64,000 nucleotides of DNA, from assembly GCA_022841245.1 (NCBI GenBank), contig JALHRW010000006.1, forward strand, positions 823 to 64,822, read 5' to 3'. The translations under genes were made by a program, and so were the position numbers. Of this stretch, positions 34,339-64,000 are shown in pieces (the stretch's first letter is position 1; every line of letters starts with the position of its first letter). Source of the stretch: Planctomycetota bacterium (GTDB lineage: Bacteria > Planctomycetota > UBA11346). The notes beneath the pieces are model-generated. The model saw only the letters and a list, made by a program, of their open reading frames with translations, did not search any database and was not told where the DNA came from.

Positions 34339-36642
34339 TCAGGGTGCCGCCTGGGCCAGACGATCCAGCAGGGTGTTGCGCCAGCGCGTGAGCTTGGAGG
34401 CGTCGTCCAAGGCTTCGAAGAAGTTGGTCACCGTGTCATTGCCGCTGTTCTCGGAACGGCTGTCGGCTGATTCCTTGAGCACGGCCTGCAGGGCGGCCAT
34501 CGCCTCGGCGTCCTTGGCGAAGCGCTTCTGATAGGTGGCGATGATGCGCCGATCATCGAGCCCGATGCGCTGGCCCTCCAGCCACGGCGAGGGGATGGTC
34601 TCGTAGGGGGTCGCCCAGGCCATCACGGCCAGATCGCCCTTGCGGCCGGAGAGGTCCCACTTGTCGCCCCAGTTGTAGGCCCATTGCCCGAAGCCGGTCG
34701 AGCCGAACGCCGCGTAGTAGAAGCCGAAGGTGTAGCGCTGGTTGGCGGGGACGCCGCCGCCGGTCCCGGAGTACTGCCAGAACCACTTCTCCCTGCCGCC
34801 GCGCTTCAGCGATGATGCACTCGCGCCGCGGATCCTGTTGCCGATGTCCTTGTCCTCCATGACCGCGTTGGTGTTGTAGACGTCGATGTCATCGATGAAG
34901 ATGCTCCACAGGTCGGGGATGCCCTTCCAGTCCTTCACGTGATGGATGCAGCCGTAGATGCGGATGCGCGGATCGGCTTCGCGGATCGCGGCGCAGCCGT
35001 CCTTGAAGTACGGCTTGATCCACGGGCCGGTGCCGAGGGTGATGGCCTTGTCGCCCTTGACCGTCGAGCCCGCCCATTTCTGCGGCTCATCGTGCGGGGT
35101 GGGCAGCAGTTCCGGCCAACCCGCGGCCAGCGCATGCGCGTTGACATGCCGCATCCAATCGACGAACACGGGGCGCGTGCTCGGCAGGATGGCGTTGCGG
35201 TGCTCGGGGGCCATCTGCTCGCGGCACCACTGGTCGCGCGTGCGCTTGCCGTCCAGCGTGCCGAGATGGGCGAAGACGTTCATGGTCCGCGGGAAGCCGA
35301 ACGGATCGCCGCCCAGGTACCACACGGCGCAGTGGAAGCCGCGCTTGCGGATGCCGGCCATCCAGTCGTCGGCATAGGTGAAGTCTACCACCACCTTGCC
35401 ATCGCGGAGCACGGTCGGGAAGCTGAACGAATTGTACCAGAGCATGGCTCCGTTGTAGTTGTAGCGCCGCTGGAAGGCGATGTCCTGCAGCGGCGGGGTG
35501 TTCTGGTAGCAGCCGACCATGGTCAGGCCGGCCTCGTCCATGCTCAGGAGATCCACCGGCAGCACCTCGACCTCCAGCGGCAGCTCGCCGGTACCTTCCT
35601 TGGCCTTGATCAGGATGCGGCCACGGTACACGCCCGGCGCGCTCTCGCCGCGCCGGGTCTCGATGTTGAGGAATAACCACTGCGCGCTGCCGGCCGGGAT
35701 GTCGGCAGGGAAGGCCGGCCACAGACGCATCGGCGTCCACAGTCCATCCATCAGCGCGTATTCGGCGGTGCGCCGCTCGATGACCGCCTTCAGCGCGCGT
35801 CCGTTGGCGTCGACCAGCGGCGTCACCTCGTAGTCGACGGATCCCAGAGCGGTGCCGTTGGCATACACGCCGAAGGACGCGGATTCGATCTGGTTCAGGC
35901 ACATGCGGACCTGCACCGGCTTGCCGACCATGGCGGTAGGCACCGGGCTGTTGGGGAAGAGCCGGCACAGGGGCTCCCATGGATACGCCGCCAACGGACC
36001 CTGGACGGCCGGCTTCTCGGTGACCGCCGGTGGCGGGGTCGCCGCGCGCTCGGACTGCTGGTCGCCGGCGATCAGGGCGCGGCATTCCGCGTAGAAGCGG
36101 GCCTCGTCGTCGGGCACGGCCCGGCGTACCGTGATCGAGGCGACCGGCAGGTCCTTGTCGGCGGCGATCGCCACCGCGGTCATGTCCGGAGCGTGGGCGG
36201 CAGGATTCACCGTGCTCTGCAGACGCGCCACCATGCTCCATGGCACCGGTATGGCCGCGGTCCGCCACTGCCCATCGCTGGCGCCGCCGAAGCGGTGCAG
36301 CACGGAATCGCCGAAGTTCCGGCCCAGGCCGCTGAAGGCCAGGAACTGGGCCGGCCGCGTCAGGACATCGCGGTAGCGGACTTCGCAAACGAAGCGTTCG
36401 CCTTCGGCGGGGCGGAGGTCGCCCGCCTCCCACCAGGCCTTGATCCGCACATGGGCGTACTTCCCGGCCAGCGCCTGGCGGAAGGCGACCCCGCCCTCCT
36501 CCGCCGGCGCCGACCAGCCGCCGTCGAACTGCGCGGCTGGCAGCGTCGCCAGGTTGTGCGTCGTCGGCAGCGCCGGCCCATCCACGGCCCAGGCCGCCGA
36601 CGACAGGAGGCAGGTCAACAGGACCAGGGTGCTGTTGTTCAT
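34339..36642 (-). CDS. Secreted protein, DUF4091-like putative glycoside hydrolase
   Basis: 767 aa. The signal peptide is MNNSTLVLLTCLLSSAAWA. The central region with LPTPHDEPQKW, IYGCIHHVKDW and FWQYSG resembles the DUF4091 family as I recall it. The functional call is weak. Confidence 0.6.
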   Translation of the reverse strand: MNNSTLVLLTCLLSSAAWAVDGPALPTTHNLATLPAAQFDGGWSAPAEEGGVAFRQALAGKYAHVRIKAWWEAGDLRPAEGERFVCEVRYRDVLTRPAQFLAFSGLGRNFGDSVLHRFGGASDGQWRTAAIPVPWSMVARLQSTVNPAAHAPDMTAVAIAADKDLPVASITVRRAVPDDEARFYAECRALIAGDQQSERAATPPPAVTEKPAVQGPLAAYPWEPLCRLFPNSPVPTAMVGKPVQVRMCLNQIESASFGVYANGTALGSVDYEVTPLVDANGRALKAVIERRTAEYALMDGLWTPMRLWPAFPADIPAGSAQWLFLNIETRRGESAPGVYRGRILIKAKEGTGELPLEVEVLPVDLLSMDEAGLTMVGCYQNTPPLQDIAFQRRYNYNGAMLWYNSFSFPTVLRDGKVVVDFTYADDWMAGIRKRGFHCAVWYLGGDPFGFPRTMNVFAHLGTLDGKRTRDQWCREQMAPEHRNAILPSTRPVFVDWMRHVNAHALAAGWPELLPTPHDEPQKWAGSTVKGDKAITLGTGPWIKPYFKDGCAAIREADPRIRIYGCIHHVKDWKGIPDLWSIFIDDIDVYNTNAVMEDKDIGNRIRGASASSLKRGGREKWFWQYSGTGGGVPANQRYTFGFYYAAFGSTGFGQWAYNWGDKWDLSGRKGDLAVMAWATPYETIPSPWLEGQRIGLDDRRIIATYQKRFAKDAEAMAALQAVLKESADSRSENSGNDTVTNFFEALDDASKLTRWRNTLLDRLAQAAP

Positions 36643-36677: not shown

Positions 36678-38654
36678 CTACTTGGCGACCGGCGCGAAGC
36701 GCACCCAATGGGTGACGGTGGAGGCGCCGGTGGGCACCTTCCAGGTCTGCGGCTTGTCCGAGGCGGTGAACACGTTCTTGGCCTCCTTCTTGGGGCCGCT
36801 GGCGTCCGTCCAGTTCACCGTCACCTCAAGATCCGACGGTTTCTCGCTGCTGACGTAGGTGGCGTAGACCTGGGTGTTGTTCTCGTCGCTGTTCTTCACG
36901 CGGATGTAGCCGACGGTCGCTGTGACATTGTCGGGATAGCTGCGGTCGCCCCACATGATGCCGTTGGTGCCATTGCCCCAGATTGAGCTGTTCTTCTCCT
37001 TGCCGGCCCGACCCAGGGTCACCGGCGCCATGGCCACATCCCAGGTCTTGCCATCGAGCGAGGTCTCCACCGACATGTCCTTGCGTCCGACCACCGTCGA
37101 CACGCCATGCAGCGAGCGGATCGGGCCGGCGGCCTCGATGCGGTAGACCTTCCAGGCTTCGCTGTCGAGTTCGGCATGGCGGAAGGTCCTGGCCATCTGG
37201 TGATCGGGTCCGCCGTGGATCGCCACCAGGTTGGAGGCCTGGTAGGTGATCTGGCTGCCATTGTCCTTGAGCCACGGGAACACTGCTGGTCCGATCTGCA
37301 CGACGGTGCGCAGCGAGAGGGCGCTGAGTTCGCCCTTGGCCGGGAAGCCCACCTTGAGCAGGTAGCTGAAGCGCCCCTTCACCTTCTCGGAGACGTCGAC
37401 GGCGCCCTTGCCGGCGGCGCCGAGGTCCTCCCAGGTCCGCCCGGCGTCGAGCGACAGCGCCAGGGTCAGTCCGTCGGAGCCGGTGCAGGTGAAGATGGCG
37501 GTCTTGTCGCAGGGGTTCTTGAACACATCCCACTTGTCGGCGGCGTTGTCGGCCTGGTGCGCGGCGATCTGGTAGGGTGCGGTGTGCGCCAGCACGATGC
37601 TGCCCTCGGCCGCCGCCACCAGCTTGCCGCCCTGCAGCTTGACGCTGTCGCTGGCAGTCCAGCCCTTGGCTGAGGCTGCGGACGTGAGGTCCGGGGTGTA
37701 TGCGAAGACGCCCTTGCCGCTGTAGACCAGCGGGTTCTTCGGCGACTTGCCCTGCTTGTTGGCGCGGCCGAAGGCGTCGTTGCCCACCGGGCCGTAGCTC
37801 AGGAAGGTCTCGCGTCGCGCCATGCCGTGGTGCTTGGGGAAGTCGAAGGCCTGCTCGAAGTAGTCCTTCGACCAGATCGCCTCGACGCCGTCGTCGCCGT
37901 CGGGCAGGCGCCAGCGGGTGAAGCTCTCTCCATCACGCAGGCTGTAGACGATCGGCATGCCCAGGTAGCCGAACATCTTCTGCTTGCCCTCGCCTTCCGG
38001 TTCGCGCACCGAATCGTAGGTGCTCAGCTTGTCGCCGAAGGGGTTGAGGCGGAGCTTCATGAAGCCGCCGTTGAGCTCGCCCGCCCGCCGCTGGGCGGCG
38101 GCGATGTCGAGGATGCCGATCGGCTTCTGCGGATCCTTGTCGAAGACCATGTGGCCGCAGGTCATGTCGGCGAGCCGCCAGGCCCCGTCGGTGAAGGCCT
38201 CGAAGGCGGTGTGGCCGGGCACCAGGGTGCAGGAGGTGGCGAGGTAGTCGCCCAGCGACTTCTGCAGGAACGGGGTGAACTGGGCATGGATCGAATAGCA
38301 CAGTCCGGTGGAGTGCGAGAACAGCCCGACCAGGCCGTCGCGGCAGAAGCCGAAGCCGGTCTCGCCGCCGAACTTGCTGCCCTTGCCGTAGAAGATGTTG
38401 TCGCCATCGGCGTGCTGGTGGTGCTCGACCCGCCAGATCCAGTGCGCGATCAGCTTGTCGGTCTGCGACTTCACCTCGCGGCCGTAGCGCTCCGTGAACT
38501 GGGCGAAGGCGGTGGCCTCGACGCGCTCGAATGTCGAGCAGGCCAGCTCGCCCTTCATCTGCGCATGGTCGGTGGCGATCTGCGGATCGGCTACCGCCGC
38601 CCCAGCCAGGGCGGCAAGGGCTAGGGAAGCGACAACGCGGGTCGGATGGGCCAT
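36678..38654 (-). CDS. Secreted protein with a transglutaminase-like (papain-fold Cys-His-Asp) core
   Basis: This is ORF 36678..38819 trimmed to the ATG at 38654, which is preceded by AAGGAG. The signal peptide is MAHPTRVVASLALAALAGAAVA. STGLCYSIHAQF ... VPGHTAFEAFTDGAWRLADMT gives Cys, His and Asp in the order and spacing of transglutaminase-like domains. Confidence 0.6.
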   Translation of the reverse strand: MAHPTRVVASLALAALAGAAVADPQIATDHAQMKGELACSTFERVEATAFAQFTERYGREVKSQTDKLIAHWIWRVEHHQHADGDNIFYGKGSKFGGETGFGFCRDGLVGLFSHSTGLCYSIHAQFTPFLQKSLGDYLATSCTLVPGHTAFEAFTDGAWRLADMTCGHMVFDKDPQKPIGILDIAAAQRRAGELNGGFMKLRLNPFGDKLSTYDSVREPEGEGKQKMFGYLGMPIVYSLRDGESFTRWRLPDGDDGVEAIWSKDYFEQAFDFPKHHGMARRETFLSYGPVGNDAFGRANKQGKSPKNPLVYSGKGVFAYTPDLTSAASAKGWTASDSVKLQGGKLVAAAEGSIVLAHTAPYQIAAHQADNAADKWDVFKNPCDKTAIFTCTGSDGLTLALSLDAGRTWEDLGAAGKGAVDVSEKVKGRFSYLLKVGFPAKGELSALSLRTVVQIGPAVFPWLKDNGSQITYQASNLVAIHGGPDHQMARTFRHAELDSEAWKVYRIEAAGPIRSLHGVSTVVGRKDMSVETSLDGKTWDVAMAPVTLGRAGKEKNSSIWGNGTNGIMWGDRSYPDNVTATVGYIRVKNSDENNTQVYATYVSSEKPSDLEVTVNWTDASGPKKEAKNVFTASDKPQTWKVPTGASTVTHWVRFAPVAK

Positions 38655-38754
38655 GTCATGCTCCTTGCTTCGCGCAGGCTGCCAGCGCCTGGTATTATTG
38701 ATGCACATCTGAACGAACCAATGCCAGCTCTTGTGACGGGGCATGCTCATGTTT

Positions 38755-38770
38755 GGCAGCGATGATGCCA
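38755..38770 (-). promoter_or_regulatory. Sigma-54-like -24/-12 element (TGGCATC-N4-CTGCC)
   Basis: The minus strand reads TGGCATCATCGCTGCC, about 100 nt upstream of the ATG at 38654. GG and GC have the canonical spacing. Four non-invariant positions deviate from TGGCACG-N4-TTGCW. No enhancer-binding protein gene is in the window. Confidence 0.25.
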
Positions 38771-38932
38771 TCTCCACAACAATGGTATTTGTCTGGTTCC
38801 TATCATACCGGGCTGCCATGGGACAACGTCATGCCGTCTGGTGCGACCGTGAATAGCCTAGACCCTTGGTCTGCATCCTCGCGACTATAACACCGATCCA
38901 TCTTGGTTCTTTGCTCTTACGTGATGGCTCAC

Positions 38933-39373
38933 TCAGGGCAGCAGGTAATCCTCGATACCGGATTCGACAACATTCCCGTCGCTGTGGGTCAGGCGCACGA
39001 AGGCGCGGGCCCCCGCTGGGATGACGGCAGGGAGCGCCATGCTGACCGCATAGCAGTCGGGGGACCGGGCGGTGGTCACGGTGGCCAGGCTGGCCACGGG
39101 ATCTCCGGCAACGGTCCAGCCGACCTCGACGCTGGCGATGGCGGGATAGCCGGCGGAGGTCTTGACCAGGAAGGTGCTGCTCGCTCCGGGATGGATGCCG
39201 CCCTCGACCGCCACGCTGACCGTCCCGTCGGGCATGGCGCGACTGCCCAGGGCGATCTGATTCGGCGTCGAACCTCCGTCCCCGCCACCGCCTCCGCCAC
39301 CACCTCCTCCGCCGCCACAGGCAGCCAGGAAGACGGTGACAAGCACGATCAGGGTGCTGGAAGCCCAAGACAT
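38933..39373 (-). CDS. Lipoprotein with a Gly12 linker directly after the lipobox cysteine
   Basis: This is ORF 38933..39400 trimmed to the ATG at 39373: MSWASSTLIVLVTVFLAAC-GGGGGGGGGGGG-DGGSTPN..., followed by a beta-rich domain of about 100 aa. It lies about 30 nt downstream of the giant gene stop. Confidence 0.7.
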   Translation of the reverse strand: MSWASSTLIVLVTVFLAACGGGGGGGGGGGGDGGSTPNQIALGSRAMPDGTVSVAVEGGIHPGASSTFLVKTSAGYPAIASVEVGWTVAGDPVASLATVTTARSPDCYAVSMALPAVIPAGARAFVRLTHSDGNVVESGIEDYLLP

Positions 39374-39404
39374 GATGGAAGCCCTCAGGGTGTGGTGCAT
39401 GGCC

Positions 39405-42400
39405 TCAACCTCCGCCGCTGGGGATGATCTGGACGTTGTCGAACACCGCCGTGCTGGGGGTCATGCCGGCATGCGAGGTCACCGCCAGGCCGACATACAG
39501 GATGGAACCCATCGGCCAGCTCGTGCTGCCGAGCTGCGTCCAGGCGACGCCATCGGCGGATTCTGACGCCGTGATGGTCGTACCGTTGCGCACCAGCCGC
39601 AGCCAGCGCGGAGCCGCTGATCGGCTGCCGGCGGTATGGGCGCTGGCTCCACCGGTGGTGGTCCGGCGCTGGAAGCCCACGCCACTGGTCGGTGTCACCA
39701 TCGCGAAGGCATGGCGGCTGCCGGACGTCAGGCTGTCACGGAACATCACGCCGGCCTTCGCCCACGCGTTGCTGTTGGTCTGCGAGCCGACGCGGGCGAT
39801 GATCGTTCCGTCCCCGGTCAGGGGCTGGCAGGCGAAGCGGAAGGCGTCCGTGCTGCCCCAGATGTCGTTGCCGCAGCCGGTCACGGTGACGCCCTCGCCG
39901 GCACCGACCATGCCCTGGTACGACACCGACCCGCCTGTCGTGCCGATGTCGCCAGCCGACCACGGCGTGGGCAGGGTTCCGGCCGCGGTCACGGTCAGGG
40001 TGGCGACGTTCGAGGTGATGCTGCCGCCGCTGTTGGCGGCCACGACGCGGAACTGGGCGCCGTGGTCGGCGAGGATGGTTGCGCTGGTGGCATAGGTGGT
40101 CGCATTGGCGCCGCTGATGGCCGTCCAGACGCCGCTGATCAACCGCTGCCACTGATAGGTCGGGGCCGGCGTACCCGTCGCCGCGACCGTGAAGCTCGCC
40201 GGCTGCCCCACCGTATGCGTGACGCTGGCGGGATGGCTGGTGATCAACGGGGCCACGGCGGTGACGGCCGCGGTGTAGGCCGAAGCGGCGGTGGCGCTCT
40301 TGGCGGGAGTCGGAGTGCCGGCGTCGGTGGCTGTCACCTGCACGCGCAGGAACTTGCCCAGGTCCGCAGCAACCGGCACATAGGCGGCGGCGGTGGCGCC
40401 GGCGATGGACGCCAGGTTGGCGCCGGTGGCATTGTCGGCGCGCTGCCACTGGTAGGCATAGGCGGCGATCGTGCCGGCATCGGCGGCGTCGTGCCAAGTG
40501 CCGGTGCTGGCGGTCAGGGTCTGGCCGACCTTGGCGGTGCCGGTGACGGCCGGGGCGACGGTGTTGACCGGCGCGTCATTGACCGCCGTCACGGTCAGCA
40601 CGAACGGCTCGCTGGCGGTCAGACTGCCATCGGAGACGGTGACGGTGATGGTGGCGCTGCCGCTCTGGTTGGCGGCCGGCGTCACGGTGACGGTGCGGGC
40701 GGAGCCCGAACCGCCGAGGACGATGCCCGCGACCGGCACCAGGGCCGGGTTCGACGAAGTGGCGGTGAGGGTCAGCGCGGTCGCCGCGGTCTGGGCGTCG
40801 CTGACGGTGACGGCCAGGGCGCCAGTGGCGGCATCCTCGGCCACAGTAAGGTCGGCGAGGGCGCTGATCGTCGGCGCGGTGTTGGTGGCCCCGGGCACGC
40901 CGAGGAGTTCGATCTCCGCGATCTGCACCGAGTTGGCCGTGGCAGGATTCGCCACCCGATCGATGCGCAGGCGGTGGATGTTGTAGCCGGTGGTATTGGC
41001 GATCGCGTAGGTCTTCTTCAGCAGGCGGCTGGCGAAGCTCTCGCCGGTCCTCGTATCCAGGGTCGTCCAGGTCGCCCCGCCGTCGTTCGAACCCAGCAGC
41101 GCCCAGTTCGCCGGATCGCGCTCGGGGGCGTCGTTGGCCGAGGTGATGGTGTAGCTGCTCACCACCCCCTGGTCCGTACCCGGGAACCGGTACTGGATCC
41201 AGCTCGCGCGGGTCGACGGGTTGGTGGCGGCGAAGTCGAGCCACTTGCGCGAAGTCAGGTTGTCGAAGGCGAAGAGCTTGGCCTCGGCGGGCGCATGCTC
41301 CCCCTGGGCGGTGATCGTGCCGGTGCCGGGATCGGTCAGGTCCGTGAGTGCGGCCGACACGGCGAGGCTGAACGTCTGGGTGGCGTCGGGAGGCACCCCG
41401 TTGGCCGCCGTGAGGGTGATCGGGCCGAACGTACCGCTCGCGGTCGGAGTACCCGACAGCGTGCTGCCGGACAGGGTCAGCCACGCGGGGGCGCCGCTGA
41501 GCGACAACGACGGGGCCGGCGTGCCGGTGGCGGTGATGGCATAGCTGTAGGCCGAACCCACCGTCGCAGTCAGGGTCGGGAGCGACAAGATCGCCGGCGA
41601 TCCGGTGACCGTCAGCACGAAGGGTTCGCTCGCCGTCAGGCTGCCGTCCGACACCGTCACCGTGATCGTGGCTAGGCCATGCTGACCGGCCGCCGGCGTC
41701 ACCGTCACCGTGCGGCTGGCGGCCGAACCGCCGAAGACGATGGCCGCGACCGGCACCAGGGCGGTATTCGACGAGGTGGCGGTGAGGGTCAGCGCGGTCG
41801 CCGCGGTCTGGGCGTCGCCCACCGTGAAGGCCAGCGCGCCGGTCGAAGTGCCCTTCGCCACCGTCAGGTCGGCGAGGACGCTGATCGTCGGCGCGGTGTT
41901 GGTGCCGCTGGTGATCGCGGTCGTGTAGGCCGAGGCGACGGTGGCGCTCTTCACCGGGGCCGGGGTGCCGGCGTCGGTGGCGGTAACCTGCACGCGCAGG
42001 AACTTGCCGGCATCGGCGGCGACCGGCACGTAGGTGGCCGCGGTGGCACCGGCGATGGCCGCCAGGTTGGTGCCGGTGGCGCTGTCGGCGCGCTGCCACT
42101 GGTAGGCATAGGTGGCGATCGGGCCGGCATCCGCCGTATCGTTCCAGGTGCCGGTGCTGGCGGTCAGGGTCTGGCCGACCTGGGCGGTCCCGGCGATGGC
42201 CGGAGCGACGGTGTTGACCGGGGCGTCATTGACGGCATTCACGGTCAGGACGAACGGCTCGTTGGCCGTCAGGCTGCCATCGGAGACGGTGACGGTGATG
42301 GTGGCGCTGCCGCTCTGGTTGGCGGCAGGCGTCACGGTGACGGTGCGGCCTGCCCCGGACCCGCCGAGGACGATGCCCGCGACCGGCACCAGGGCCGGGT

Positions 42401-45400
42401 TCGACGAGCTGGCGGTGAGGGTCAGCGCAGTCGCCGCGGTCTGGGCGTCGCCCACGGTGATGGCCAGGACGCCGGTCGCGGTGTCCTCGGCCACCGTCAG
42501 GTCAGCGAGGACGCTGATCGTCGGCGCGGTGTTGGTTCCGCTGGTGATCGCGGTCGTATAGGCAGAGGAGGCGGTGGTGCTCTTGGCCGGCGTCGGCGTT
42601 CCGGCATCGGTGCCGGTGACCTGCACGCGCAGGAATTTGCCCATATCGGCGGCGACCGGCACGTAGGTTGCCGCGGTCGCGCCGGCGATCGCCGCCACGC
42701 CGGATCCGGTGGCGCTGTTAGCGCGCTGCCACTGGTAGGCGAACGAGGCGATGGTGCCGCTGTCGTTGAGGTCGTTCCAGGTGCCGGAGGCGGCGGTCAG
42801 GGTCTGCCCCACCTGGGGAGCGCCGGTGATGGCCGGCAGCGCGGTGCAGACGGGCGGATCGTTGATCGGCAGCACCGTCACCGTGAAGGTCGTGGAGGCG
42901 GGGAATCCGCCCGTGTCGATCACCGTCACCTGGATGGTCGCGGATCCGGAGCGGTTGGCGGCCGGCGTGACCTTCACCGTGCGATTGGACCAGGACCCGC
43001 CCAGGACCACGTTGGACGACGGGATCAGGGTCGGATTCGACGAGGTGGCGCTGAGCGCCAGGAGATCCGCGGTGGTCTCGGCATCGCTGATGGTGAAGCC
43101 GATGGCGCTGCTGGTGGAATCCTCGTTCATGGTCAGGTCGGCGATGGTCGAGATCGACGGGGGCAGGGTGCCGGAGGCCGTCACCATCGTCGTCCACAGC
43201 GAGGCCGCGGCGGCGCTGGCCTTGGGCAGCGGCGAACCGTTGTCGGTGGCGATCTCGAGGACGCGCAGATAGGCACCGACATCGGCCGCCACCGGTACAT
43301 AGGTCATGGCGGTGGCGCCGGCGAGGCTCACCGCGGTGTTCTCCGGATCGCCGGGGTCGGCGATGCGCTGCCACTGGTAGGCGCGGGCGGAAAGGGAGCC
43401 GCCGTCCACCGTATCGTTCCAGGTGCCGGCGAGCGCGGTCAGGGTCTGGCCCGCCTGGATGGTGCCGCTGATGCGTGGCTGGTCGGTGCAGCGCGGCGGG
43501 TCGTTGACCGGAGCGACGGTGACGGAGAACGACTCGGTGGCGAGGTTCACCCCGTCCGACACCCGCACGGTGACGGTCGCGGTGCCATGCTGATCGGTGC
43601 CCGGAGCGACCGAGACCTGCCGATCGGTGCCGGTGCCGCTGAAGGTGATCTGCGCGACCGGCAGCAGGGTCGCGTTGGAGGTGGTGGCGCTCAGGGTCAG
43701 CACCGCGGGGTTGGACTGGGCGTCGCCGACCGTGAGCGGAATGGCGGCGGCGATGCCGTCCTCGGCGACGGTCTGGTTGGGGATGGCGGTGATGGTTGGC
43801 GGGGTGTTGACGGTGTGCCAGAGGACGGCATCGGGCACCAGGGCCTTGGCGATGCTGGGGCCCTGCCACCACAGTTCGAGACCCATGGCGGCAGTACCCT
43901 GGGCATAGGCCAGCACCAGGTCATGGAAGCCAGCCGACAGGGTCAGGCTGGCGCTCGACTTCTGGGTCATGTTGTTGGCGGTGTTGTTGACCACCAGCAC
44001 GCCGTCCACGAAGAGTTGCGAGCCATCGTTGGACGCCGTGGTGAAGATGTAGGTGCCGGCCGTGTCGATTTTGATCATGCCCGAGAAGCGCACCGCGAAG
44101 TTGAGCTCCTGGGTGCGCATGGCGAGGTTGACGTTGGGGCTCACGCCGCTGGCCACCGGGGTCAGCAGGGTGAAGTCGGGAACGGTGGCGCCGTTGCCGG
44201 TGAAGTAGTCCCACGCCAGACCGTTGGCCCGCGGGGTGTACTGGAAGGACATCTGGCTGCCGGCCTGGATGGTATTGGGCACCGCGGCGGTGTCCTGGAC
44301 GTTCGATACCTGCAGCAGGTAGGTCGTGCCGGCCACCAGGTTGGGGCTGACGGTCAGGGTGACGCTGCGGGTGTCGGCGTTGCGCACCGCCCCGACCACC
44401 GCGATGCCGTGGTCGAGCGTATAGTTGGCCGGATTGGCCGCGCCGTGCGGTCCGCTGCCATCGGCCAGCGGTTCGCTGGCGATCACCATCACCTGGTTGG
44501 CCGCCCCGAGGCTCTGCACCGCCACCAGGGTCGGCGGCGTCACATCGCCGGTCACCGTCACGGTGACCAGCCCGGTCGAGCTGGCGAGGCCGTTGCCGAC
44601 GGTGTAGCCGAAGGTCTCCGTCCCGGTCCAGGAGCGGTCCGAATTGGTGTAGATCACCGAATTGCCGGAGACGGTCCGCGTGCCGTGCAGGGGCGCCGGA
44701 GGAGGGAAGGTGGTGGCGAGGGTCAGCGGCCGTCCATCCGGGTCGGCGTCGTTGGCCAGCACCGGGATCACGACCGTGCCTCCCGCAGCCACCGTGGCGC
44801 TGTCGGCGACGGCGGTGGGCGGCGAGCACACGGTGATGGTCAGCTCCTTCCAGCCGCGCGCCTGCCACTCGTCGATCACCTCGACCCGCGCGGTGTAGAC
44901 GCCGGGGGTGCTGAAGGTGCGGGTGATCGAGGCCGTGGTGGCGCCGTTCAGGTCCTGGACGGCGACCGGCTCTTTGCGCCCACCATCGTAGCCTTCGAGG
45001 AACCATTCGATGCGGTGCTCGTAGGATGCATACGGGCTGTCGGAAGTCCCCAGGTCGGCATCGGTGAACGTCAGGTTGAAGGTGGCGCTGGAGCCGGTGT
45101 CGATCTTGCTCGCGCTGGCCGTGAAGGCCGTGACCACCGGCAATTCATTCGACGGTGACATCTTCACCCCCATCGACAGGTCGCCGTAATGGACGGTGCG
45201 GTTCCAGGCGTAGAACGGGTAGCGGTCGAGCAGGCTGCGCCCCCAGGACTCGCCGCTCGCGAGCAGGGACCGGACCCGGGTGGCATTCGGGTAATCGGGG
45301 GTCAGTCGCCAATCGCCGACGTAGTTGGTGATGGTGCCGCTGACCGCCCAGACCAGGCCGCCGCCGCGGGTGAAGATGTGGTGGTTGCCGATGCCGCCGA

Positions 45401-53986: not shown

Positions 53987-54011
53987 TTTGCATGCCAAGT
54001 GCAGATCTCGC
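53987..54011 (-). promoter_or_regulatory. Bipartite motif copy C (minus strand GCGAGAT-N12-TGCAAA), 22 nt upstream of the ECF sigma start codon
   Basis: The plus strand reads TTTGCA(53987-92)-tgccaagtgcag-ATCTCGC(54005-11). It has the same 12-nt spacing as copies A and B, with a different spacer sequence. Confidence 0.5.
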
Positions 54012-56984: not shown

Positions 56985-57399
56985 GATGTCCTGCGGGTCG
57001 AGCCAACCATCTTGGTCGTTCAGCGGGCGCGTTCACCTTGCGTCTCGATGTAGGCATTGTCAATCCAGGCTCGATGTCCCGGATCGACGCATGGTGATCA
57101 GCCGAGAGCAGCGAGCGCAATCCGTGTGAGACACGGAATGGAGCGGATTTTTCCGTACTTCCAGAATCTGAGTAGCGTTGACGGTAGCACATAATGATAT
57201 GCGGTATTGGAAGATCCGGCGATCGTAAAACACGAGTCGTTGTCTGACCGCAGCCGTCACCAAGTCTCGCGGACACCCTCCCGGATTAAAATATCACTGG
57301 TTTATCTGGCCTTTTTGCATCCAGTACGACACTTCACCAACTCGACCGTCACAGGTTGCCGGGTTACGACACTATCCGGATGGAGGCACGGAGGAACAG

Positions 57400-58383
57400 A
57401 TGAGACAGGTCCATTGCGGCTTCACCCTGATCGAACTACTCGTGGTGATCAGCATCCTCCTCATACTGCTGGGTCTGATCATGCCTCTGATCGGCATGGC
57501 TGATCGCGAGGCGAGGAAGTCTGCCACCCGTACGGTGATGGCCAAGGTCGATACGGCTCTGCGGTTGTTCCGGTCGGAACTCGGGCCCTATCCCTATCAA
57601 CAGACCTATGCCGACATCGGCTCCGGCGCGGCCTGGACCAACCGCCTGTTCTACCATCTCGGCACCGACATCAGCGATGCGGACAGGCAGCAGGTCATGG
57701 CCGATGCCAATGCGGCGGCCGCCCTCTACGCCTATCAGGGGGCCAGCCCCCATGCCTACCGCAATGCCCAGATGCCCTTCTACGGCGGTTCTGGTTCCCT
57801 GGTCGCCAACCGCATGGCCCGCGAGCGGGTCCGTCTGGCCATCATCTCCGGCCACATCAAGGTCACCGGTGGCGTCCTCGTTGACTTGACCCTGCCCGCC
57901 TTGCCCACTGGAGCGCTGCTGGTCTCGCCGCTCAGCGCCGCTCGGTCAGGATGGGCCAAGGACTACCTGCGGGGCGAATTGTCAGCCCGGCATGTCGATG
58001 GCGAGGCCATTCTCGACGCCTGGAGGCGCCCCATCATCTACGTCTGCCAGGTCGTCGAAGGCATGCGCACCGCGGCCATCTCCTATAGCGACACGGTCTG
58101 CCTAGGCCTCAAAGCCAACCAGATTGGTCTGCATCCGCAAGGTCGGCGTACGCTCGCTCCCATCGATGCGTATGATGCCAAACCATTGGTGTCCAATCCC
58201 CCCGCCCTGCCTGACCTCAACGATCTGCGGCGCTCCGACCGCCGACTCTACGCACCTCGCACCCTCGAACTCGAGTTCGAACTGTGGAGCGCCGGGCCCA
58301 ACGGCCGAGCCGACTGGATGCGCGATGCCGCGGACAACCGCGACAACATCGCCCCGTTGAATTACGACAAGGGCATTCCATGA
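57400..58383 (+). CDS. Type II secretion/type IV pilus-like major pseudopilin (GspG-like) with a large insertion
   Basis: 327 aa. A GGAGG SD is present. The prepilin-type N-terminus is GFTLIELLVVISILLILLGLI. The GspG-like tail is LDAWRRPIIYVCQ...FELWSAGPNGRAD. Confidence 0.8.
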   Translation: MRQVHCGFTLIELLVVISILLILLGLIMPLIGMADREARKSATRTVMAKVDTALRLFRSELGPYPYQQTYADIGSGAAWTNRLFYHLGTDISDADRQQVMADANAAAALYAYQGASPHAYRNAQMPFYGGSGSLVANRMARERVRLAIISGHIKVTGGVLVDLTLPALPTGALLVSPLSAARSGWAKDYLRGELSARHVDGEAILDAWRRPIIYVCQVVEGMRTAAISYSDTVCLGLKANQIGLHPQGRRTLAPIDAYDAKPLVSNPPALPDLNDLRRSDRRLYAPRTLELEFELWSAGPNGRADWMRDAADNRDNIAPLNYDKGIP

Positions 58384-59909
58384 ACCGTCGGCAGGCGTTC
58401 ACCCTGATCGAGATCCTGGTCGTGCTGATGATCGTCATGATCATGATCGGATTCGTCATTCCCTATTCGTCCACCGACCGCCGCGAGGCGGAGGTGCGCG
58501 GCGCCGCCGAGGAACTGGCGGCGGTGCTGCGGGAGACCCGCGAACGCGCCCTGCTGCGCAACTATACGCACGCGGTGGCCTTCAACATCACCAATGCACC
58601 GGGCAGCTCGGGGCGGATCCTCAACAACCGCAAGGGGGGTCACTGGTATCGCGTCATCGGCACGGCCGACCAGACGGGCGGCTGGAACATCGATGAACGC
58701 CTGTGGAACCGCTTCCCCTACTACGACTGGAGGGCTTCCCCGGCGAACGGCTACGAACCTGCGCTGGGCCACCACACCATCCCGATCAAGGACTATGTCG
58801 AACTCGTGTCCCGTTCCTGGGTCGATGAACCGCACATCCTGCCTCCAGGCAAGGTGCGGTTCCTCGCCCTGCTCGACCAGGACAATGGCGACAACCTGGC
58901 CCCGGATCGCGGCGGCTATTACACGGCGACCTACCCGCGGCCCTGGTTCGGCTGGTGGGATCCCAACGACGGCAAGTTGCACACTTGGGGCGGCTACGAC
59001 CCGGCATTGAAGGGCGAGAGCCAGGGCTTCCTCGGCTGGGAGTTGGGCAGCATGTCGCGGACCATGGTGGGAGGCCGTCTGGCCAGTCCCTCGGGCTTCT
59101 ATTACGAGGGTTGGGACGGCGAGATCCCCGGTTGCCGCAACCCCAGCGACCGGGTGGTGCTGCATGACAACGGGGGGATGACCCCGGGGATCGTCGACCA
59201 CGTTGACACCGCCACCTACACCCTGCACCGCGCGGGGGAACCGCGTCCCCTGATCAATGCGGAATGGCTCGACTACATGATCCTGTTCCACCCGGATGGC
59301 ACGGTCTGCGACGATTGGTTCCGCATGCGCCAGGGGTATTGGAAGCTCGACACCGCCCGACCCAACAACCAGGATCCCTTCGTGCCGACCTACCCCGCGC
59401 TCACCAGCAGGCATGCCGGCGTCATGGATCGCTGCAACGGCACGGCCTGGCGACGCAACTGGAGCGATCGTGACGCGTCATACCCCGGGCTATCTGCGGC
59501 CCAGCGCGAAGCCACCTCCTTCGTGAACCGCACCGGCTTCTACTGGATCACCCTCGCCCCCGACGCCCCGGACGACACGGCGACCTTCATGACGGCCCAG
59601 GCTGCCCTGCGTTCGATCTCGCCGATGTACCGCGTCGGCGTCAGCCCCGAGGGGCATGTCAAGGTCATCCGCGTGAAGAACACCAGCACCCGCGCCCTGG
59701 ACAACACCATCACCGGCAATGATTGGCAGGACAAGAGCAAGATCTGGGGCAAACCCGGCCCGACCTGGTCTGCCAGCACACCCATCGCCACGGAGAACTA
59801 CGTCAACCACGAACTGCGCAAGGCCAATGGTTCCGCGCTGGGGGCGCCGGTCCACGACACGGTGACGCAGGAGATGCTGAGCCGGCGCGCCTGGTGGTGG
59901 GCTCCATGA
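58380..59909 (+). CDS. Oversized pseudopilin, GspH/FimT-like N-terminal region
   Basis: This is ORF 58284..59909 trimmed to the ATG at 58380 (ATGA overlap). It has MNRRQAFTLIEILVVLMIVMIMIG and then EVRGAAEELAAVLRETRERAL (GspH-like). 509 aa. Confidence 0.8.
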   Translation: MNRRQAFTLIEILVVLMIVMIMIGFVIPYSSTDRREAEVRGAAEELAAVLRETRERALLRNYTHAVAFNITNAPGSSGRILNNRKGGHWYRVIGTADQTGGWNIDERLWNRFPYYDWRASPANGYEPALGHHTIPIKDYVELVSRSWVDEPHILPPGKVRFLALLDQDNGDNLAPDRGGYYTATYPRPWFGWWDPNDGKLHTWGGYDPALKGESQGFLGWELGSMSRTMVGGRLASPSGFYYEGWDGEIPGCRNPSDRVVLHDNGGMTPGIVDHVDTATYTLHRAGEPRPLINAEWLDYMILFHPDGTVCDDWFRMRQGYWKLDTARPNNQDPFVPTYPALTSRHAGVMDRCNGTAWRRNWSDRDASYPGLSAAQREATSFVNRTGFYWITLAPDAPDDTATFMTAQAALRSISPMYRVGVSPEGHVKVIRVKNTSTRALDNTITGNDWQDKSKIWGKPGPTWSASTPIATENYVNHELRKANGSALGAPVHDTVTQEMLSRRAWWWAP

Positions 59910-60298
59910 ACCGCCCCGACCGCGCCTTCACCCTCATCGAGGTCATGGCCAGCGTGCTGGTCCTGACCTTCGCCCTGACCGCAGCCTGCGCCATGATCCT
60001 CTACGGCCTGCAATTGGCGCGCTCGACCCATGGGATGTCCCTGGGCATGTCAACAGCGCTGGCCGTATTCGAGGATCCCAGCCCGATGAAGACCGACCCG
60101 ACCTTCACCAGCAGCGGAGGAACCGCCTCGGGATACCTCAACGGCCTCTGGGTGGAACGACGCGAAAGCGATGAGACCCCGTTGGAGGGCCCGCTCGGCA
60201 CCACGGTGGCGGTCACCGTCCACGTCGACGTCCGCGATGGGGCTGACGGCACCATGTACGCCTCCATCACCGGCCGTCTGATCAGGCGCAAGCCATGA
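59906..60298 (+). CDS. Small pseudopilin (GspI-like size)
   Basis: This is ORF 59723..60298 trimmed to the ATG at 59906 (ATGA overlap). It begins MNRPDRAFTLIEVMASVLVLTFAL. 130 aa. Confidence 0.75.
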   Translation: MNRPDRAFTLIEVMASVLVLTFALTAACAMILYGLQLARSTHGMSLGMSTALAVFEDPSPMKTDPTFTSSGGTASGYLNGLWVERRESDETPLEGPLGTTVAVTVHVDVRDGADGTMYASITGRLIRRKP

Positions 60299-61224
60299 AC
60301 CGCCATCATCCCCGTTGCCCCGGCTTCACCCTGATCGAACTGCTGATCGCCGTCGTCCTGACCCTGCTCGTCGCCGGAATCGCGACCATGTCGATTGCGC
60401 AGATGCTGCAGACCACCCGACGCCTGCAGGCCATGCAGACCATGGACGGCGATGCCCGGACCGTGCATGGGAAGCTGGCGGCGGAGTTCGCCACCCTGCA
60501 TCCCTGCGCCACCGTTTTCCTGAATTCGCATGTCACCGATCGCAGCATCGAATTGGTGTTCATGCATGTCCAACGCTCGCCGCTCAGCCACCTCTATGAG
60601 ACGCGCATGGAAACCCAGAGGAGCGTCGGTTCCTTCCCCGGTTACACGGACATCCTCTGGACTCGCTGGCATTGGAGCGGGAACACCGGACTCATCACGG
60701 TAGCGACCAGCAGTTCTGCTCGCTGGACGCGGGTGTTTGCGGATCAGACGCGCGATTACTGGAAGATATCCGGTGGATCGAGGATGAGCCACACCGTTCC
60801 CAACGGCTACAAGGATGCCGGCTGGCCATATTTCAACGGCTTTCTCTCGGTGCCGCGCCTGGTGCGCGAGACCGGGACGGGAAGCCCGCAGCCGCTCCTG
60901 GACACCAACTGCTGGGGCACGGGCGAGGACAGCGACATCGGCGACTACGAGGAACTCAAGCGCAAGGCCCGGCCCATCCTCTCGGATTGCACTGATCTTC
61001 GTCTCGAACTCGTTGATCGCCTGGGCAGGGCGACGGTCGTCGATGGCAGTTCCACCAAGGTCTGGGCATGCCCGGGCACCTTCGTGGATGGTCGCGGCAG
61101 AGGCAGCCTCGATGACCGTCCCAGCCAGGTGCGCATCATGTTCACCATCACCCATCCTACCGTCGCCGGACTCAGCCGCACCTACAGCTTCAGCTGCGCT
61201 GGCCCCGGCATCCCCACCTATTGA
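60295..61224 (+). CDS. Pseudopilin (GspJ/PilW-like)
   Basis: 309 aa, ATGA overlap at 60295-60298. It has PGFTLIELLIAVVLTLLVAGIATMSI. Confidence 0.8.
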   Translation: MNRHHPRCPGFTLIELLIAVVLTLLVAGIATMSIAQMLQTTRRLQAMQTMDGDARTVHGKLAAEFATLHPCATVFLNSHVTDRSIELVFMHVQRSPLSHLYETRMETQRSVGSFPGYTDILWTRWHWSGNTGLITVATSSSARWTRVFADQTRDYWKISGGSRMSHTVPNGYKDAGWPYFNGFLSVPRLVRETGTGSPQPLLDTNCWGTGEDSDIGDYEELKRKARPILSDCTDLRLELVDRLGRATVVDGSSTKVWACPGTFVDGRGRGSLDDRPSQVRIMFTITHPTVAGLSRTYSFSCAGPGIPTY

Positions 61225-61236
61225 CGGAACGCATCC

Positions 61237-64000
61237 ATGGTTGTCGCTCGCTCCGGTTCGGCCCTGCTGCTCTGCCTCGCTCTGGCTGCCTTTGCCGTCA
61301 TGGTCGGCTACGCCTTCCTGCGCAGCGCTGCCCGCAAGCAGATGACGGGACGCAGCGAGCAGTTCAACACCTTGGCCTACGTCGCGGCGCAGAGCGCTCT
61401 TGCCCACGCCACGGAGCAGATCCTCAAGGACTACAACGCCACGGACCTGGACATCGCATCGCGGGGAGCACTGGTCTCCGTGCCGCGGGCTCCGCAGCAT
61501 CTCGACGGGCCATACCGTGCCCCGTTCGTCGGCAGCAGAAGGCAGAACAGGCTCAGCTATGCCGATAGCTCCAACGCTCTCGAGGGCGTCGAGGTCAGCG
61601 AATACAACCATCTGGCCTTCACCCTGCAGACGATCGACTCCCAATACCGCTACGCCTGGTGGTACGATTTCCACAACAGCTACGATGGCCTGTACTCCCG
61701 GGCCAGCGGGAGCCAAGTCTACGACTCGCGAGGCCACCTCTACGAGCCGAACTACCATAACGTCACCCGTCCATCCCCGGCCATCGCCAATCCGACCCCG
61801 GTGGTGCATACCGTATTCATCGACGCTGCGGCACCGACGCCGGAACGCAACGAGGGTCTGTTCCTCGATGAGAACCTGCGCAGGATATCGGGCGGTACGC
61901 CTGATGACCGGCGTCGGAAGGCGCGCTACCGCCTGCGCTACGCGGTCGGGGTCGAGGATCTATCCGGTCATTTCCAGACCAATCCGCGCGCGGCCATGAA
62001 CCTCGACTGGTCAGACCCGGACAACGACTATCGGAAGGTCCCGGCCTGGGTCGAGCACAAGGGGTACGTCCTGCAGAACCACGTCAGCCGCTGGGACTCG
62101 GATATCCGCGATCTCCCTGGTCGGTTGCGTGCGAGCCATGTCTTCCTCGGTCGCGGCAGCGCCAGCAACGCCGACCGGGCCTGGGCGTCTGGTTCGCGCA
62201 ACGGACTGCCGGCCACCTTCCCCATGATGTTCCGCTCGGTCCAGAACCCGACGGGTTCACCCGCCGAGAAATTCCCTTGGTACGGCAATTTCAGCCACTG
62301 GCAGGGGAGCACGACGGATATGCAGGGCGGTAGGATCTACGGCTTCAGCAACAGCGTCGATGCCGCCTACGAGAGCATTGCCGCCAACCCGAATGGCGGG
62401 GAAATCCTCACGCCCGTCGGCCAGCCGCCGTCCTGCCCCTATGTCCATGCCCAGCTTGGACCCCAGCATTCCTGGTGGAACTTCCTCTATGCCACGAATG
62501 GCTACGCCATGCCGGACAACTGGCCGAGCGCCTTCGGGAACCGTGGCTGGTTCAAGGATGGCCAGAAGAGTTCGCCGGATTTCGCCACCGATTGGGCGCG
62601 GTGGAACACCTCTCTGACCCCGTTCGGGCGCAGGATCGTCGCCGTCCAGCCATGGAGGTCCGGTCATTATTACCGCCTCGACGATTGGGTGGAGGTCGGT
62701 GGCCGCCGCTTCGTCTGCGTCTCCCCGGGCGTCTCCTCGCTGTCTCCGACCTCCGGCGACCTCGTCGATAACAAGTTGGCTTGGCGCGATGAGGGGACGG
62801 AACGGCGCTGGTACCACGGCAAGCTCGACAATCCGTGGGAAATCAACCTGCTGACGGCGCCGGCCCTGACCATCTCCTCGATGATCACGTCCTACCTCCC
62901 GCCCTATGTGAAATCGTACCGCGATGCCGGCGGCAATCCGGTGATGTCCAGGGCGCATGATATCCTGAACGCGCAACTGAATTCGGGCTTGTCGGAATTC
63001 TCCGCTCCCCTCGACGGCGGCATCGTCAACTATTACCATAACTATAAACTCGACCCTCGCACACCGGAGCAGCGTTATCCTGGTCCGCTCTGCCGATCCG
63101 ATGTCGTGGCAGGCGACAACCTGGGGATGGTCGACAACCTGGGCAAGGACATCGACGTCGACCGGGCGGCCGGAACACGGGAACTCCATCAGCGGATCCG
63201 CAACATTGCCTGGTGCACCCACTCCTACAATCCGCTGCTGAACTACCTGCACAGCAATTCCCGATACGTGATCCAGCCGATGGTCTACACCGACAGCTAT
63301 TTCTTCGATCTCGCCCATGCCCTGAGTACGGCGATCTCCTACGTCCGAGCCACCTGGGTGCAGTACCCCAACCTGGTCTTCGATCCGAGGACCGGCTTCA
63401 GCCCACTTGGACTACGTGATCCGATGGCCTACGACACCATCGAGGAGGTTGATGCCCTGTTCCTGCGCCAACTCGGCGAGGACTGGAGCAATCCCGGCTA
63501 TCGCAATGGCGCCAATCCCATCAACAGCACTGCAACACCCAAATACATCTATAGTGTCGATCAGAATCCCGTGAAGAACACCATCCGTTCCCTGGTCGAC
63601 GATCCATCCAATCCGTTGGCGATCACCATCTCGCTCAAGGGCGTATCGAGAACGATCAACACCAGGGATCGTGCACGGGTCATGGAGCGCATGCTCAACG
63701 ACTGGCGCATGTCCTTCCTTGGCGCCAGTTCCGGGTACGTCGATTTCCGCCCCATGGACTTCGACCGCAACAACAAGGTCGATGCGTCCTGCTACGACAT
63801 CAACCCGGCGGCTACGACAGACGAAATGGAGTATTGCATCGCCCGCTGGAAACCGGTGGAAGCGACTGGTCGGGGACCGGCGCCGACGCCGTTCACCAAT
63901 TTCGACCCGGCCATCGGCAGCAATCCCTGGTTCTCCGCCACCGGCACCTTTTTCATCGGCAAGAGTCACTACTTCCGCGTCTTCACTCGCGGAGAAGTGT
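61237..64000 (+). CDS. Very large GspK-like minor pseudopilin/tip protein, 3' end beyond the window (more than 921 aa)
   Basis: It is not in the ORF track because the frame (61237 mod 3) stays open to the window end. I translated it by hand without meeting a stop: MVVARSGSALLLCLALAAFAVMVGYAFLRSAARKQ... through ...WFSATGTFFIGKSHYFRVFTRGEV. The last segment resembles the conserved GspK/PilX-type C-terminal core. Minus-strand ORFs 60001..61809, 62257..63318 and 63412..63969 are its shadows. Confidence 0.75.
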   Translation, partial: MVVARSGSALLLCLALAAFAVMVGYAFLRSAARKQMTGRSEQFNTLAYVAAQSALAHATEQILKDYNATDLDIASRGALVSVPRAPQHLDGPYRAPFVGSRRQNRLSYADSSNALEGVEVSEYNHLAFTLQTIDSQYRYAWWYDFHNSYDGLYSRASGSQVYDSRGHLYEPNYHNVTRPSPAIANPTPVVHTVFIDAAAPTPERNEGLFLDENLRRISGGTPDDRRRKARYRLRYAVGVEDLSGHFQTNPRAAMNLDWSDPDNDYRKVPAWVEHKGYVLQNHVSRWDSDIRDLPGRLRASHVFLGRGSASNADRAWASGSRNGLPATFPMMFRSVQNPTGSPAEKFPWYGNFSHWQGSTTDMQGGRIYGFSNSVDAAYESIAANPNGGEILTPVGQPPSCPYVHAQLGPQHSWWNFLYATNGYAMPDNWPSAFGNRGWFKDGQKSSPDFATDWARWNTSLTPFGRRIVAVQPWRSGHYYRLDDWVEVGGRRFVCVSPGVSSLSPTSGDLVDNKLAWRDEGTERRWYHGKLDNPWEINLLTAPALTISSMITSYLPPYVKSYRDAGGNPVMSRAHDILNAQLNSGLSEFSAPLDGGIVNYYHNYKLDPRTPEQRYPGPLCRSDVVAGDNLGMVDNLGKDIDVDRAAGTRELHQRIRNIAWCTHSYNPLLNYLHSNSRYVIQPMVYTDSYFFDLAHALSTAISYVRATWVQYPNLVFDPRTGFSPLGLRDPMAYDTIEEVDALFLRQLGEDWSNPGYRNGANPINSTATPKYIYSVDQNPVKNTIRSLVDDPSNPLAITISLKGVSRTINTRDRARVMERMLNDWRMSFLGASSGYVDFRPMDFDRNNKVDASCYDINPAATTDEMEYCIARWKPVEATGRGPAPTPFTNFDPAIGSNPWFSATGTFFIGKSHYFRVFTRGEV

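Follow-up and report, generated by a model that had tools for sequence, protein, structure and literature searches.

The pseudopilins GspG to GspK of the type II secretion system (T2SS), which include the GspI-J-K tip complex of enterotoxigenic Escherichia coli (PDB 3ci0), are encoded by five coupled genes in G-H-I-J-K order and are typically roughly 150-330 amino acids (aa) long. In type IVa pili (T4aP), minor-pilin/PilY1 clusters (fimU-pilVWXY1E, with several in Myxococcus xanthus) have no motor genes, and several alternative clusters prime one machine and set its adhesive specificity. The Verru_Chthon cassette of the Planctomycetes-Verrucomicrobia-Chlamydiae (PVC) superphylum consists of multi-copy prepilin-type proteins, including one very large member. 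Degenerate kinases are also found in the cell envelope. EssB/YukC, a bitopic protein with a degenerate Hanks-type kinase fold, is a structural scaffold of the type VIIb secretion system (T7SSb), and MviN of Mycobacterium tuberculosis pairs a pseudokinase with an extracellular carbohydrate-binding domain (PMC12599244). Here we describe a locus that combines features of these systems: five oversized pseudopilin genes beside a gene for a membrane pseudokinase, PKIN. The locus lies in a 64,000-nucleotide stretch from an uncultured Planctomycetota bacterium (contig JALHRW010000006.1, positions 823 to 64,822), referred to below as the window.

A sequence-only reading had joined some 30 kb of the window into a single surface system, in which glycan sensing by the pseudokinase and an anti-sigma factor switches on giant adhesins that a pseudopilus displays or secretes. 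This region is probably a mosaic of two functional modules and accessory genes, not one surface machine. Module 1 (54078-64000) appears, with reasonable confidence, to be a recurring planctomycete cassette of oversized, GspG-H-I-J-K-ordered pseudopilins and a bitopic pseudokinase. Module 2 (39405-54011) is rather likely to be an ordinary PVC-type pair of extracytoplasmic function (ECF) sigma factor and FecR protein with giant adhesins, specific to one genome lineage. The noteworthy object is the pseudopilin-pseudokinase cassette, which is smaller than and different from the system first proposed. As that reading had supposed, the combination of genes appears to be undescribed: literature searches yielded no account of it, and those on planctomycete pseudopilins, the Verru_Chthon cassette, prepilins with glycoside hydrolases (GHs) and DUF1559 yielded none of a five-pilin cassette. 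For comparison, 54 related loci were assembled from genome contigs, metagenome contigs and individual look-ups (Planctomycetota metagenome-assembled genomes, MAGs, and metagenomes), and their open reading frames (ORFs) were tagged by tblastn and jackhmmer. Module 1 comprises the following features.

54078..56984, minus strand: PKIN, bitopic pseudokinase of 968 aa (Pkinase E 5.5e-6; AlphaFold model; orthologue alignment)
56985..57399, no strand: divergent intergenic region between PKIN and the pilin operon (conserved islands in an alignment with locus L019, spacer otherwise diverged)
57400..58383, plus strand: J327, GspG-like (major-type) pseudopilin of 327 aa with large insertions (N_methyl E 5.3e-7)
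58380..59909, plus strand: K509, GspH/FimU-like oversized minor pseudopilin of 509 aa (N_methyl)
59906..60298, plus strand: L130, GspI/PilV-sized minor pseudopilin of 130 aa (N_methyl; weak PilV match, E 0.0035)
60295..61224, plus strand: M309, GspJ-position minor pseudopilin of 309 aa (N_methyl; weak N-terminal HpsC and GspJ matches)
61237..64000, plus strand, running past the window end: N, giant GspK-position protein (921 aa inside the window, 980 aa in full, P0031)

The five pseudopilin genes were correctly recognized from the sequence as coupled and oversized. Their coordinates agree, 4-bp overlaps join J327, K509, L130 and M309 in series (translational coupling), four genes match N_methyl, and the fifth encodes 980 aa in full. 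J, K, L and M carry a class III prepilin motif with Glu5 (N_methyl E 5e-7 to 4e-5), and N has a hydrophobic N-terminus without Glu5, as in GspK. The best NCBIfam families are GspG for J327 (E 3.3e-10) and GspH for K509 (E 2.9e-10), in each case at the N-terminus only; these matches span residues 7-68 and fall under the cut-offs. Farther along J327, the C-terminal motif ILDAWRRPIIYVCQ (ILDAWRRPxIYVCQ) is kept in six orthologues, as is a second one, ELWSAGPDGR...NRDN (or ELWSAGPNGR...NRDN), and by eye both appear to correspond to the GspG core. Beyond N_methyl, T2SSG is the only Pfam family that matches more than one J-family member; it does so weakly and below threshold in six of eight (best E 5.7e-4). 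Orthologues of K509 occur in L002, L003, L004, L016, L019, L050 and L052, and those of M309 are likewise present in related loci.

The cassette shares with T2SS GspG-K the five coupled genes in the same order, the class III signal ([GA]-F-T-L-I-E) on the first four proteins, a Glu5-less last protein that is also the largest, and the GspG-like C-terminal motifs of J. It differs in that its proteins are 2-5 times larger (327, 509, 309 and 980 aa), with bodies that have no significant sequence or fold match, and in that its surroundings lack gspC, D, E, F, L, M and O. A pseudokinase occupies the post-GspK position that normally belongs to GspL, and there are several cassettes per genome, each in a locus of carbohydrate-active enzymes (CAZymes). 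No gspD, gspE or gspF (secretin, ATPase, platform) was found in the 64-kb window, and module 1 itself encodes no ATPase, platform, secretin or peptidase. Motor and secretin families were also absent from the 25 commonest families of a 106-ORF neighbour census and from the annotation of L050-L054. By its N-terminal signals and gene order the cassette resembles a T2SS pseudopilin or type IV pilus (T4P) minor-pilin set, whereas motor genes are not co-located with it.

Like the T4aP minor-pilin/PilY1 clusters, the cassette is a motor-less minor-pilin operon with one very large last protein. Unlike in those clusters, J looks more like GspG than like PilA/PilE, PKIN has no counterpart, and N begins with a pilin-like helix and gives no match to PilY1. 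A PilY1 homologue, with its vWA domain and beta-propeller, was considered for N and rejected on the lack of a Pfam, NCBIfam or significant PDB fold match. The nearest catalogued PVC analogue is formed by the Verru_Chthon cassette proteins A-D (TIGR02596-TIGR02600). Membership of that family was also rejected, as the matches are confined to the N-terminal helix and lie far under the cut-offs (TIGR02596 16.5-17.2 bits against 70; TIGR02599 15.4 bits against 256.5), and N has no match.

The giant protein N belongs to a family of 62 proteins of 870-1250 aa, none of which has a Pfam domain; N itself matches neither Pfam nor NCBIfam. Its model, a confident one (predicted local distance difference test, pLDDT, 80.9; predicted template modelling score 0.88), consists of a 60-residue N-terminal helix (residues 6-67) followed by a large body. 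A Foldseek comparison of this model with the PDB gave nothing significant (best E 0.14; GspK 3ci0_K E 0.3). At about residues 467-515, N carries an insert resembling carbohydrate-binding module (CBM) family 5/12, WRSGHYYRLDDWVEVGGRRFVCV..., with a small local match to chitin-binding domains. This CBM5/12-like insert is confined to the window protein and P0042 among 36 aligned family members, which hints that individual lineages have added binding modules to their tip protein.

Abundant planctomycete prepilin-type proteins are suspected to use the prepilin signal for anchoring or export only. In the same way, the large "pilins" described here might be inner-membrane-anchored periplasmic or surface glycan-binding proteins or enzymes, with PKIN as a signalling partner. 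Bodies of 2-5 times canonical size in which no pilin-fold homology is detected past helix 1 would fit this explanation, as would the insert in N and the CAZyme-rich loci. Against it stand the conserved GspG-like C-terminal motifs of J and the strict five-gene order, in which a protein of GspI size and, at the GspK position, one without Glu5 form the hallmark of a tip or priming complex. We regard this explanation as quite unlikely.

PKIN was described from the sequence as a pseudokinase with an extracytoplasmic ConA-type domain, and both parts of this description are borne out by its degenerate motifs and its modelled lectin/CBM-type fold. Its Pkinase score (26.4 bits) is under the gathering score of 31.7. 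Judged by the features of an active Hanks-type Ser/Thr kinase (Gly-rich loop, Lys, HRD Asp, Asn and DFG Asp), PKIN fails. The Gly-rich loop is missing, Arg stands in for the VAIK Lys and Leu for the catalytic-loop Asn, and EGW or DGW is found in place of DFG; at the position of the HRD Asp, most members of a 22-sequence alignment have A, E, N, S or R instead. The catalytic motifs are thus degenerate, and they are not conserved across orthologues. From its sequence, PKIN is predicted to be catalytically dead and incapable of phosphorylation. In the AlphaFold model (pLDDT 85.9), residues 20-260 form a PknB-like kinase fold (Foldseek E 4e-9), a single transmembrane helix spans 274-308, residues 313-493 form a beta-sandwich similar to galectin-like YesU (1oq1, E 2.4e-7) and CBM66 (4b1m, TMt 0.78), and residues 504-964 form an alpha-solenoid. 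A word-indexed search returned about 28 full-length orthologues with 34-71% identity. A profile search found 889 matches at E <= 1e-30 among 1.84 billion cluster representatives, and more than 100 of the 150 matches listed align over nearly the full length.

In architecture, the only level at which they were compared, PKIN, EssB/YukC and MviN are alike in having a cytoplasmic degenerate kinase fold, one transmembrane helix and an extracytoplasmic domain. PKIN differs in its phylum, in its machine and in its additional alpha-solenoid of about 460 residues. No type VII secretion genes were seen in any of the loci.

Across the 54 loci, the only recurring parts are the five-pilin cassette and PKIN. 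In ten loci (L002, L003, L005, L016, L018, L022, L026, L027, L028 and L030) PKIN directly follows N on one strand, with a short gap of 13-67 bp where it was read (L002, L003, L005 and L018). The divergent layout of the window is also seen in L019 (identical to L021; 71% identity), L024 and L035, and in other loci the pilin genes come after PKIN or converge with it. In L050, whose N is only 25% identical, an 885-aa PKIN-family protein (profile E 2.4e-28) is encoded upstream of a six-pilin operon. Of the 43 non-redundant loci, 22 have a pilin-type gene no more than 1 kb away from PKIN. The sigma factor, FecR and the module 2 and accessory proteins E296 and B713 are absent from every related locus, including the 71% orthologue L019, where PKIN is followed by an unrelated gene in the reverse orientation. 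The giant adhesins, too, are missing from each of the orthologous loci, L019 among them. PKIN travels with pseudopilins and not with the sigma/anti-sigma pair. Of the 30-kb system first envisaged, the joint recurrence of pilins and PKIN is retained. Most of the other genes are not syntenic in related loci, the very check that the sequence-only reading had named.

At least two MAGs have two cassettes each (L002 and L003 in JAFLCQ01; L005 and L016 in JBBQCI01), and many paralogues occur within one metagenome. The neighbouring genes encode GntR/Peripla_BP_3, AraC and LacI-type regulators, an SSF-type transporter, and enzymes or modules that include SASA esterases, GH5, GH35, fucosidase, CBM9, GH81, GH2, GH16, GH172 and GH39. 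These data also bear on a simpler explanation, in which the five genes are the housekeeping T2SS GspG-K set, enlarged in this lineage, and PKIN is an unrelated signalling gene that is nearby by chance. The G-H-I-J-K order, the translational coupling and the GspG/GspH-type N-termini agree with it, and motor genes are often encoded elsewhere. A housekeeping set is, however, at odds with MAGs that carry two or more complete cassettes, with the many paralogues of a single metagenome, and with surrounding CAZyme loci that differ from cassette to cassette. Chance proximity of PKIN is at odds with the N-PKIN adjacency, with gaps of 13-70 bp, kept in ten loci, down to about 34% identity, and with the reappearance of PKIN beside the cassette in L050 in another position. 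We regard an enlarged housekeeping T2SS as very unlikely.

The divergent intergenic region contains a perfect palindrome, TCCGTGTGAGACACGGA, at 57121-57137, of which the L019 copy differs by one central base, and a conserved box, TTTTGCAT, closer to the pilin start. The palindrome is likely to be an operator site. This conserved element points to a dedicated DNA-binding regulator, rather than the ECF sigma factor, acting on the PKIN/pilin region.

The cassette would supply an alternative fibre and tip (priming) complex to a T2SS- or T4P-type motor encoded elsewhere. The several minor-pilin clusters of Myxococcus provide an analogy for cassettes feeding one shared motor. Several paralogous cassettes are present per genome, amid glycoside hydrolases and AraC, GntR and LacI-type regulators. 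Since the cassettes are multi-copy and lie amid glycoside hydrolases and sugar regulators, their most likely role would be that of a pseudopilus or pilus that is specific to a substrate and serves to capture glycans or to export CAZymes. A glycan-related setting had also been noted from the window itself, in which a GH8 gene and an alginate-lyase-like gene adjoin the 30-kb region on its upstream side; the CAZymes and sugar regulators around homologous cassettes strengthen that observation. The enlarged pilin bodies would themselves carry the binding functions, among them, in the window, the CBM5/12-like insert of the tip protein. PKIN would serve in the membrane as a sensor or a scaffold. In the periplasm, its CBM-like sandwich and its solenoid would make contact with glycan or pilins, and on the cytoplasmic side the kinase-like domain would offer a docking site for a partner, as in EssB/YukC of T7SSb or mycobacterial MviN.

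The second module and the accessory genes beyond it are all encoded on the strand of PKIN.

53987..54011, minus strand: motif GCGAGAT-N12-TGCAAA upstream of the sigma gene (exact match)
53413..53964, minus strand: ECF sigma factor (Sigma70_r2 E 1.6e-16, r4_2 4.8e-7)
51939..53423, minus strand: FecR-type anti-sigma factor (FecR E 1.8e-8; overlaps the sigma gene)
51864..51888, minus strand: motif GCGAGAT-N12-TGCAAA upstream of F1256 (exact match)
47925..51695, minus strand: F1256, giant tandem-95/Big_9/He_PIG/PKD adhesin-like protein (domains from hidden Markov models, HMMs; C-terminal sorting tail)
47851..47875, minus strand: motif GCGAGAT-N12-TGCAAA upstream of the E296-D2461-C155 operon (exact match)
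46787..47677, minus strand: E296, N-terminally anchored Ala-rich protein, weakly HEAT-like (HEAT_2 E 0.017; 4-bp overlap with D2461)
39405..46790, minus strand: D2461, giant tandem-95/Big_9/Cadherin_5/PA14/Ig adhesin-like protein (HMM domains)
38933..39400, minus strand: C155, lipoprotein of 155 aa with LAAC followed by Gly12 (from the sequence)
36678..38819, minus strand: B713, secreted protein of unknown family (no Pfam, NCBIfam or PDB match)
34339..36642, minus strand: A767, secreted protein of unknown family (no Pfam, NCBIfam or PDB match)

The sigma factor has regions 2 and 4 only, and a FecR-domain membrane protein is encoded next to it, as expected of a sigma/FecR pair. Its best family is TIGR02989 (Rhodopirellula/Verrucomicrobium; 116.8 bits, cut-off 124.55), and TIGR02937 scores 82.5 bits, over its cut-off of 42.9. 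The motif GCGAGAT-N12-TGCAAA matches three times in the 64 kb, each time on the coding strand of its gene, and no more when two mismatches are permitted; exact matches in 100 shuffles numbered 0. Within the window no copy precedes PKIN, the pilin operon or B713, and the 49 related loci searched have none either. Its position before the sigma gene and two downstream units would be the expected signature of an autoregulated ECF promoter. Since the exact promoter-like motif is common to all three upstream regions, the sigma factor likely autoregulates and drives F1256 and the E296-D2461-C155 operon. This sustains one half of the proposed switch, that from sigma to adhesins, and leaves the PKIN/pilin region outside it.

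In its overlapping genes, putative autoregulated promoter and large secreted proteins downstream, the pair is like other PVC-type ECF sigma (TIGR02989)/FecR pairs. It differs in a score just under the cut-off, in a FecR protein without close relative, and in the motif itself, which departs from the classical AAC/CGT consensus of ECF promoters. The ECF-adhesin island is ordinary apart from this unusual promoter motif. As a separate observation, the FecR anti-sigma factor has no relative besides itself at E <= 1e-10 in 5.8 billion proteins, which is unusual for so common a family.

Several domain assignments made from the sequence alone survive in part. The sigma and FecR domains are secure, and the LamG-like C-terminus assigned to FecR is sub-threshold (Laminin_G_3 E 0.022). 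Big_9, Cadherin_5 and tandem-95 repeats occur in both F1256 and D2461, and PA14 in D2461 and the tripartite tail sequence of F1256 are also upheld; the discoidin domain (F5_F8_type_C_2 E 0.015) and the ConA-like or LamG-like end of D2461 (DUF1349 E 2.7e-5) stay below threshold, and its supposed protease-like module has no Pfam, NCBIfam or PDB sequence match even at E <= 10. Of the three lectin-type folds that had been counted, the PKIN beta-sandwich is present in a model, and those of FecR and D2461 are indicated at sub-threshold level only. The HEAT protein exists as E296, with HEAT_2 again sub-threshold (E 0.017). The Gly12 lipoprotein is confirmed by the LAAC-G12 of C155. The transglutaminase-like and DUF4091-like labels of B713 and A767 find no HMM or PDB sequence support, as Pfam, NCBIfam and PDB sequence searches were empty for both even at E <= 10; in B713 a C...H...D pattern is visible by eye, and nothing more.

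The C-terminus of F1256 is tripartite, with G12-C-GAGG, a hydrophobic helix and RRQRRH, and it matches a MYXO-CTERM-anchored family weakly (E 0.017). Known MYXO-CTERM and GlyGly-CTERM tags need a T2SS for surface delivery (PMC11980579; 10.1101/2023.06.07.544157). The F1256 tail is like them in its Gly-rich signature with one Cys, hydrophobic helix and Arg cluster. It is unlike them in that no tag HMM is significant, no cognate protease gene lies in the window, and the phylum is outside those described for such tags. This tail is the only, and indirect, hint of a functional tie between the adhesins and the pseudopilus. Nothing else shows that the adhesins are displayed or secreted through the cassette fibre, as had been suggested.

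The same tail is among the points that favour one integrated system over the whole 30 kb, in which glycan sensing by PKIN and FecR leads through sigma to adhesin expression and the pseudopilus serves for display or secretion of the adhesins. The genes are all physically contiguous, the PKIN and sigma genes are close together on one strand, ConA-type folds are present or weakly indicated in PKIN, FecR and D2461, and D2461-like giants lie near PKIN paralogues in L001, L039 and L041. Against integration, sigma, FecR, E296 and B713 are missing from all of the more than 50 related loci, FecR is without relatives, neither PKIN nor the pilin operon is preceded by the promoter-like motif, and PKIN co-varies with the pilins instead. 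We consider such a system unlikely.

The reading of the region as a fibre-forming cassette beside an independent sigma-adhesin module also has points against it. Fibre assembly by the cassette is a prediction from gene content, with no motor among the module 1 genes, and past the N-terminal helices homology to GspG-K is weak (T2SSG, sub-threshold) or absent (N, no PDB match). In about half of the PKIN-family loci, pilin genes are missing from the 1 kb on either side of PKIN; the flanks are truncated in some of these loci, and others hold distant paralogues. At least one distant cassette, L052, has J-K-L-M-N with no PKIN within 10 kb, and because of this the PKIN-pilin partnership is frequent and not obligatory, the five-gene cassette being the deeper unit. 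In module 2, the motif could bind another regulator, and the leaders of F1256 and E296 owe some of their similarity to duplication. These leaders of about 165 nucleotides (47678-47924 and 51696-51938) are alike beyond the promoter boxes (CATCGTCGACCAaGCCgCCCCA), which suggests a duplicated promoter-leader unit or a shared 5'-untranslated-region element; Rfam found nothing in them. Finally, PKIN precedes the sigma gene by only 113 bp in the same orientation, and because of this spacing some read-through coupling from PKIN to sigma may occur in this genome.

The accessory genes have their own distribution. When A767, B713, C155, E296 and FecR were sought in the related loci by phmmer and jackhmmer, only A767-like (L020 and L022) and C155-like (L041) proteins were found. 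Homologues of A767 are encoded directly downstream of PKIN (L020:3108-5456, 35% identity; L022:5141-7498); in the window, PKIN and A767 are 17 kb apart, with the genes from sigma to B713 between them. Because the homologues adjoin PKIN, the 17-kb sigma-adhesin block may have been inserted between PKIN and A767 in this lineage. In L041 (15318-19406), a 1205-aa D2461-like giant is followed after 3 bp by a 155-aa C155 orthologue (E 6e-64), near three PKIN-family genes. The pair of giant and small lipoprotein is a recurring unit in its own right.

The window has 67% guanine plus cytosine (GC). A low-GC island (25246-29232; 56-57% against about 68% in its surroundings) just upstream of the lyase and GH8 genes contains two mobile-element genes.

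25246-26211: phage-type integrase
26305-29232: Tn3-family transposase

Terminal inverted repeats were sought in the flanks of the transposase and none were found. An Rfam scan of the window gave no match. The genome loci among the relatives are all labelled Planctomycetota except L004 ("bacterium"). Elsewhere in the window, and unrelated to the surface genes, a near-perfect, full-length DUF4914 protein (8550-10421; E 1.9e-293) is encoded between two LysR regulators and purK.

According to the account of Boedeker et al. 2017 given in PMC11131199, planctomycetes bind and internalize whole polysaccharides with fibres whose genes are unknown. The cassettes, often with PKIN, might be the genetic basis of substrate-specific glycan-capture fibres. 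Each CAZyme locus would have its own fibre and tip set with CBMs in the pilins, and PKIN would be a new component of pilus machines that couples periplasmic glycan or pilin binding to the cytoplasm in place of GspL/PilM-type proteins; as a whole, this proposal is tentative and still doubtful. The multi-copy giant-pseudopilin cassette in CAZyme loci is a candidate for substrate-specific fibres or for cargo-specific T2SS tips. The ECF motif defines a small, testable regulon for the giant adhesins. With 889 cluster representatives at the threshold given above, the PKIN family cannot be called rare, yet it carries no annotation. If the proposal is true, PKIN would be the third dead kinase in envelope machines after EssB/YukC and MviN, and the first to be tied to the type IV filament superfamily.

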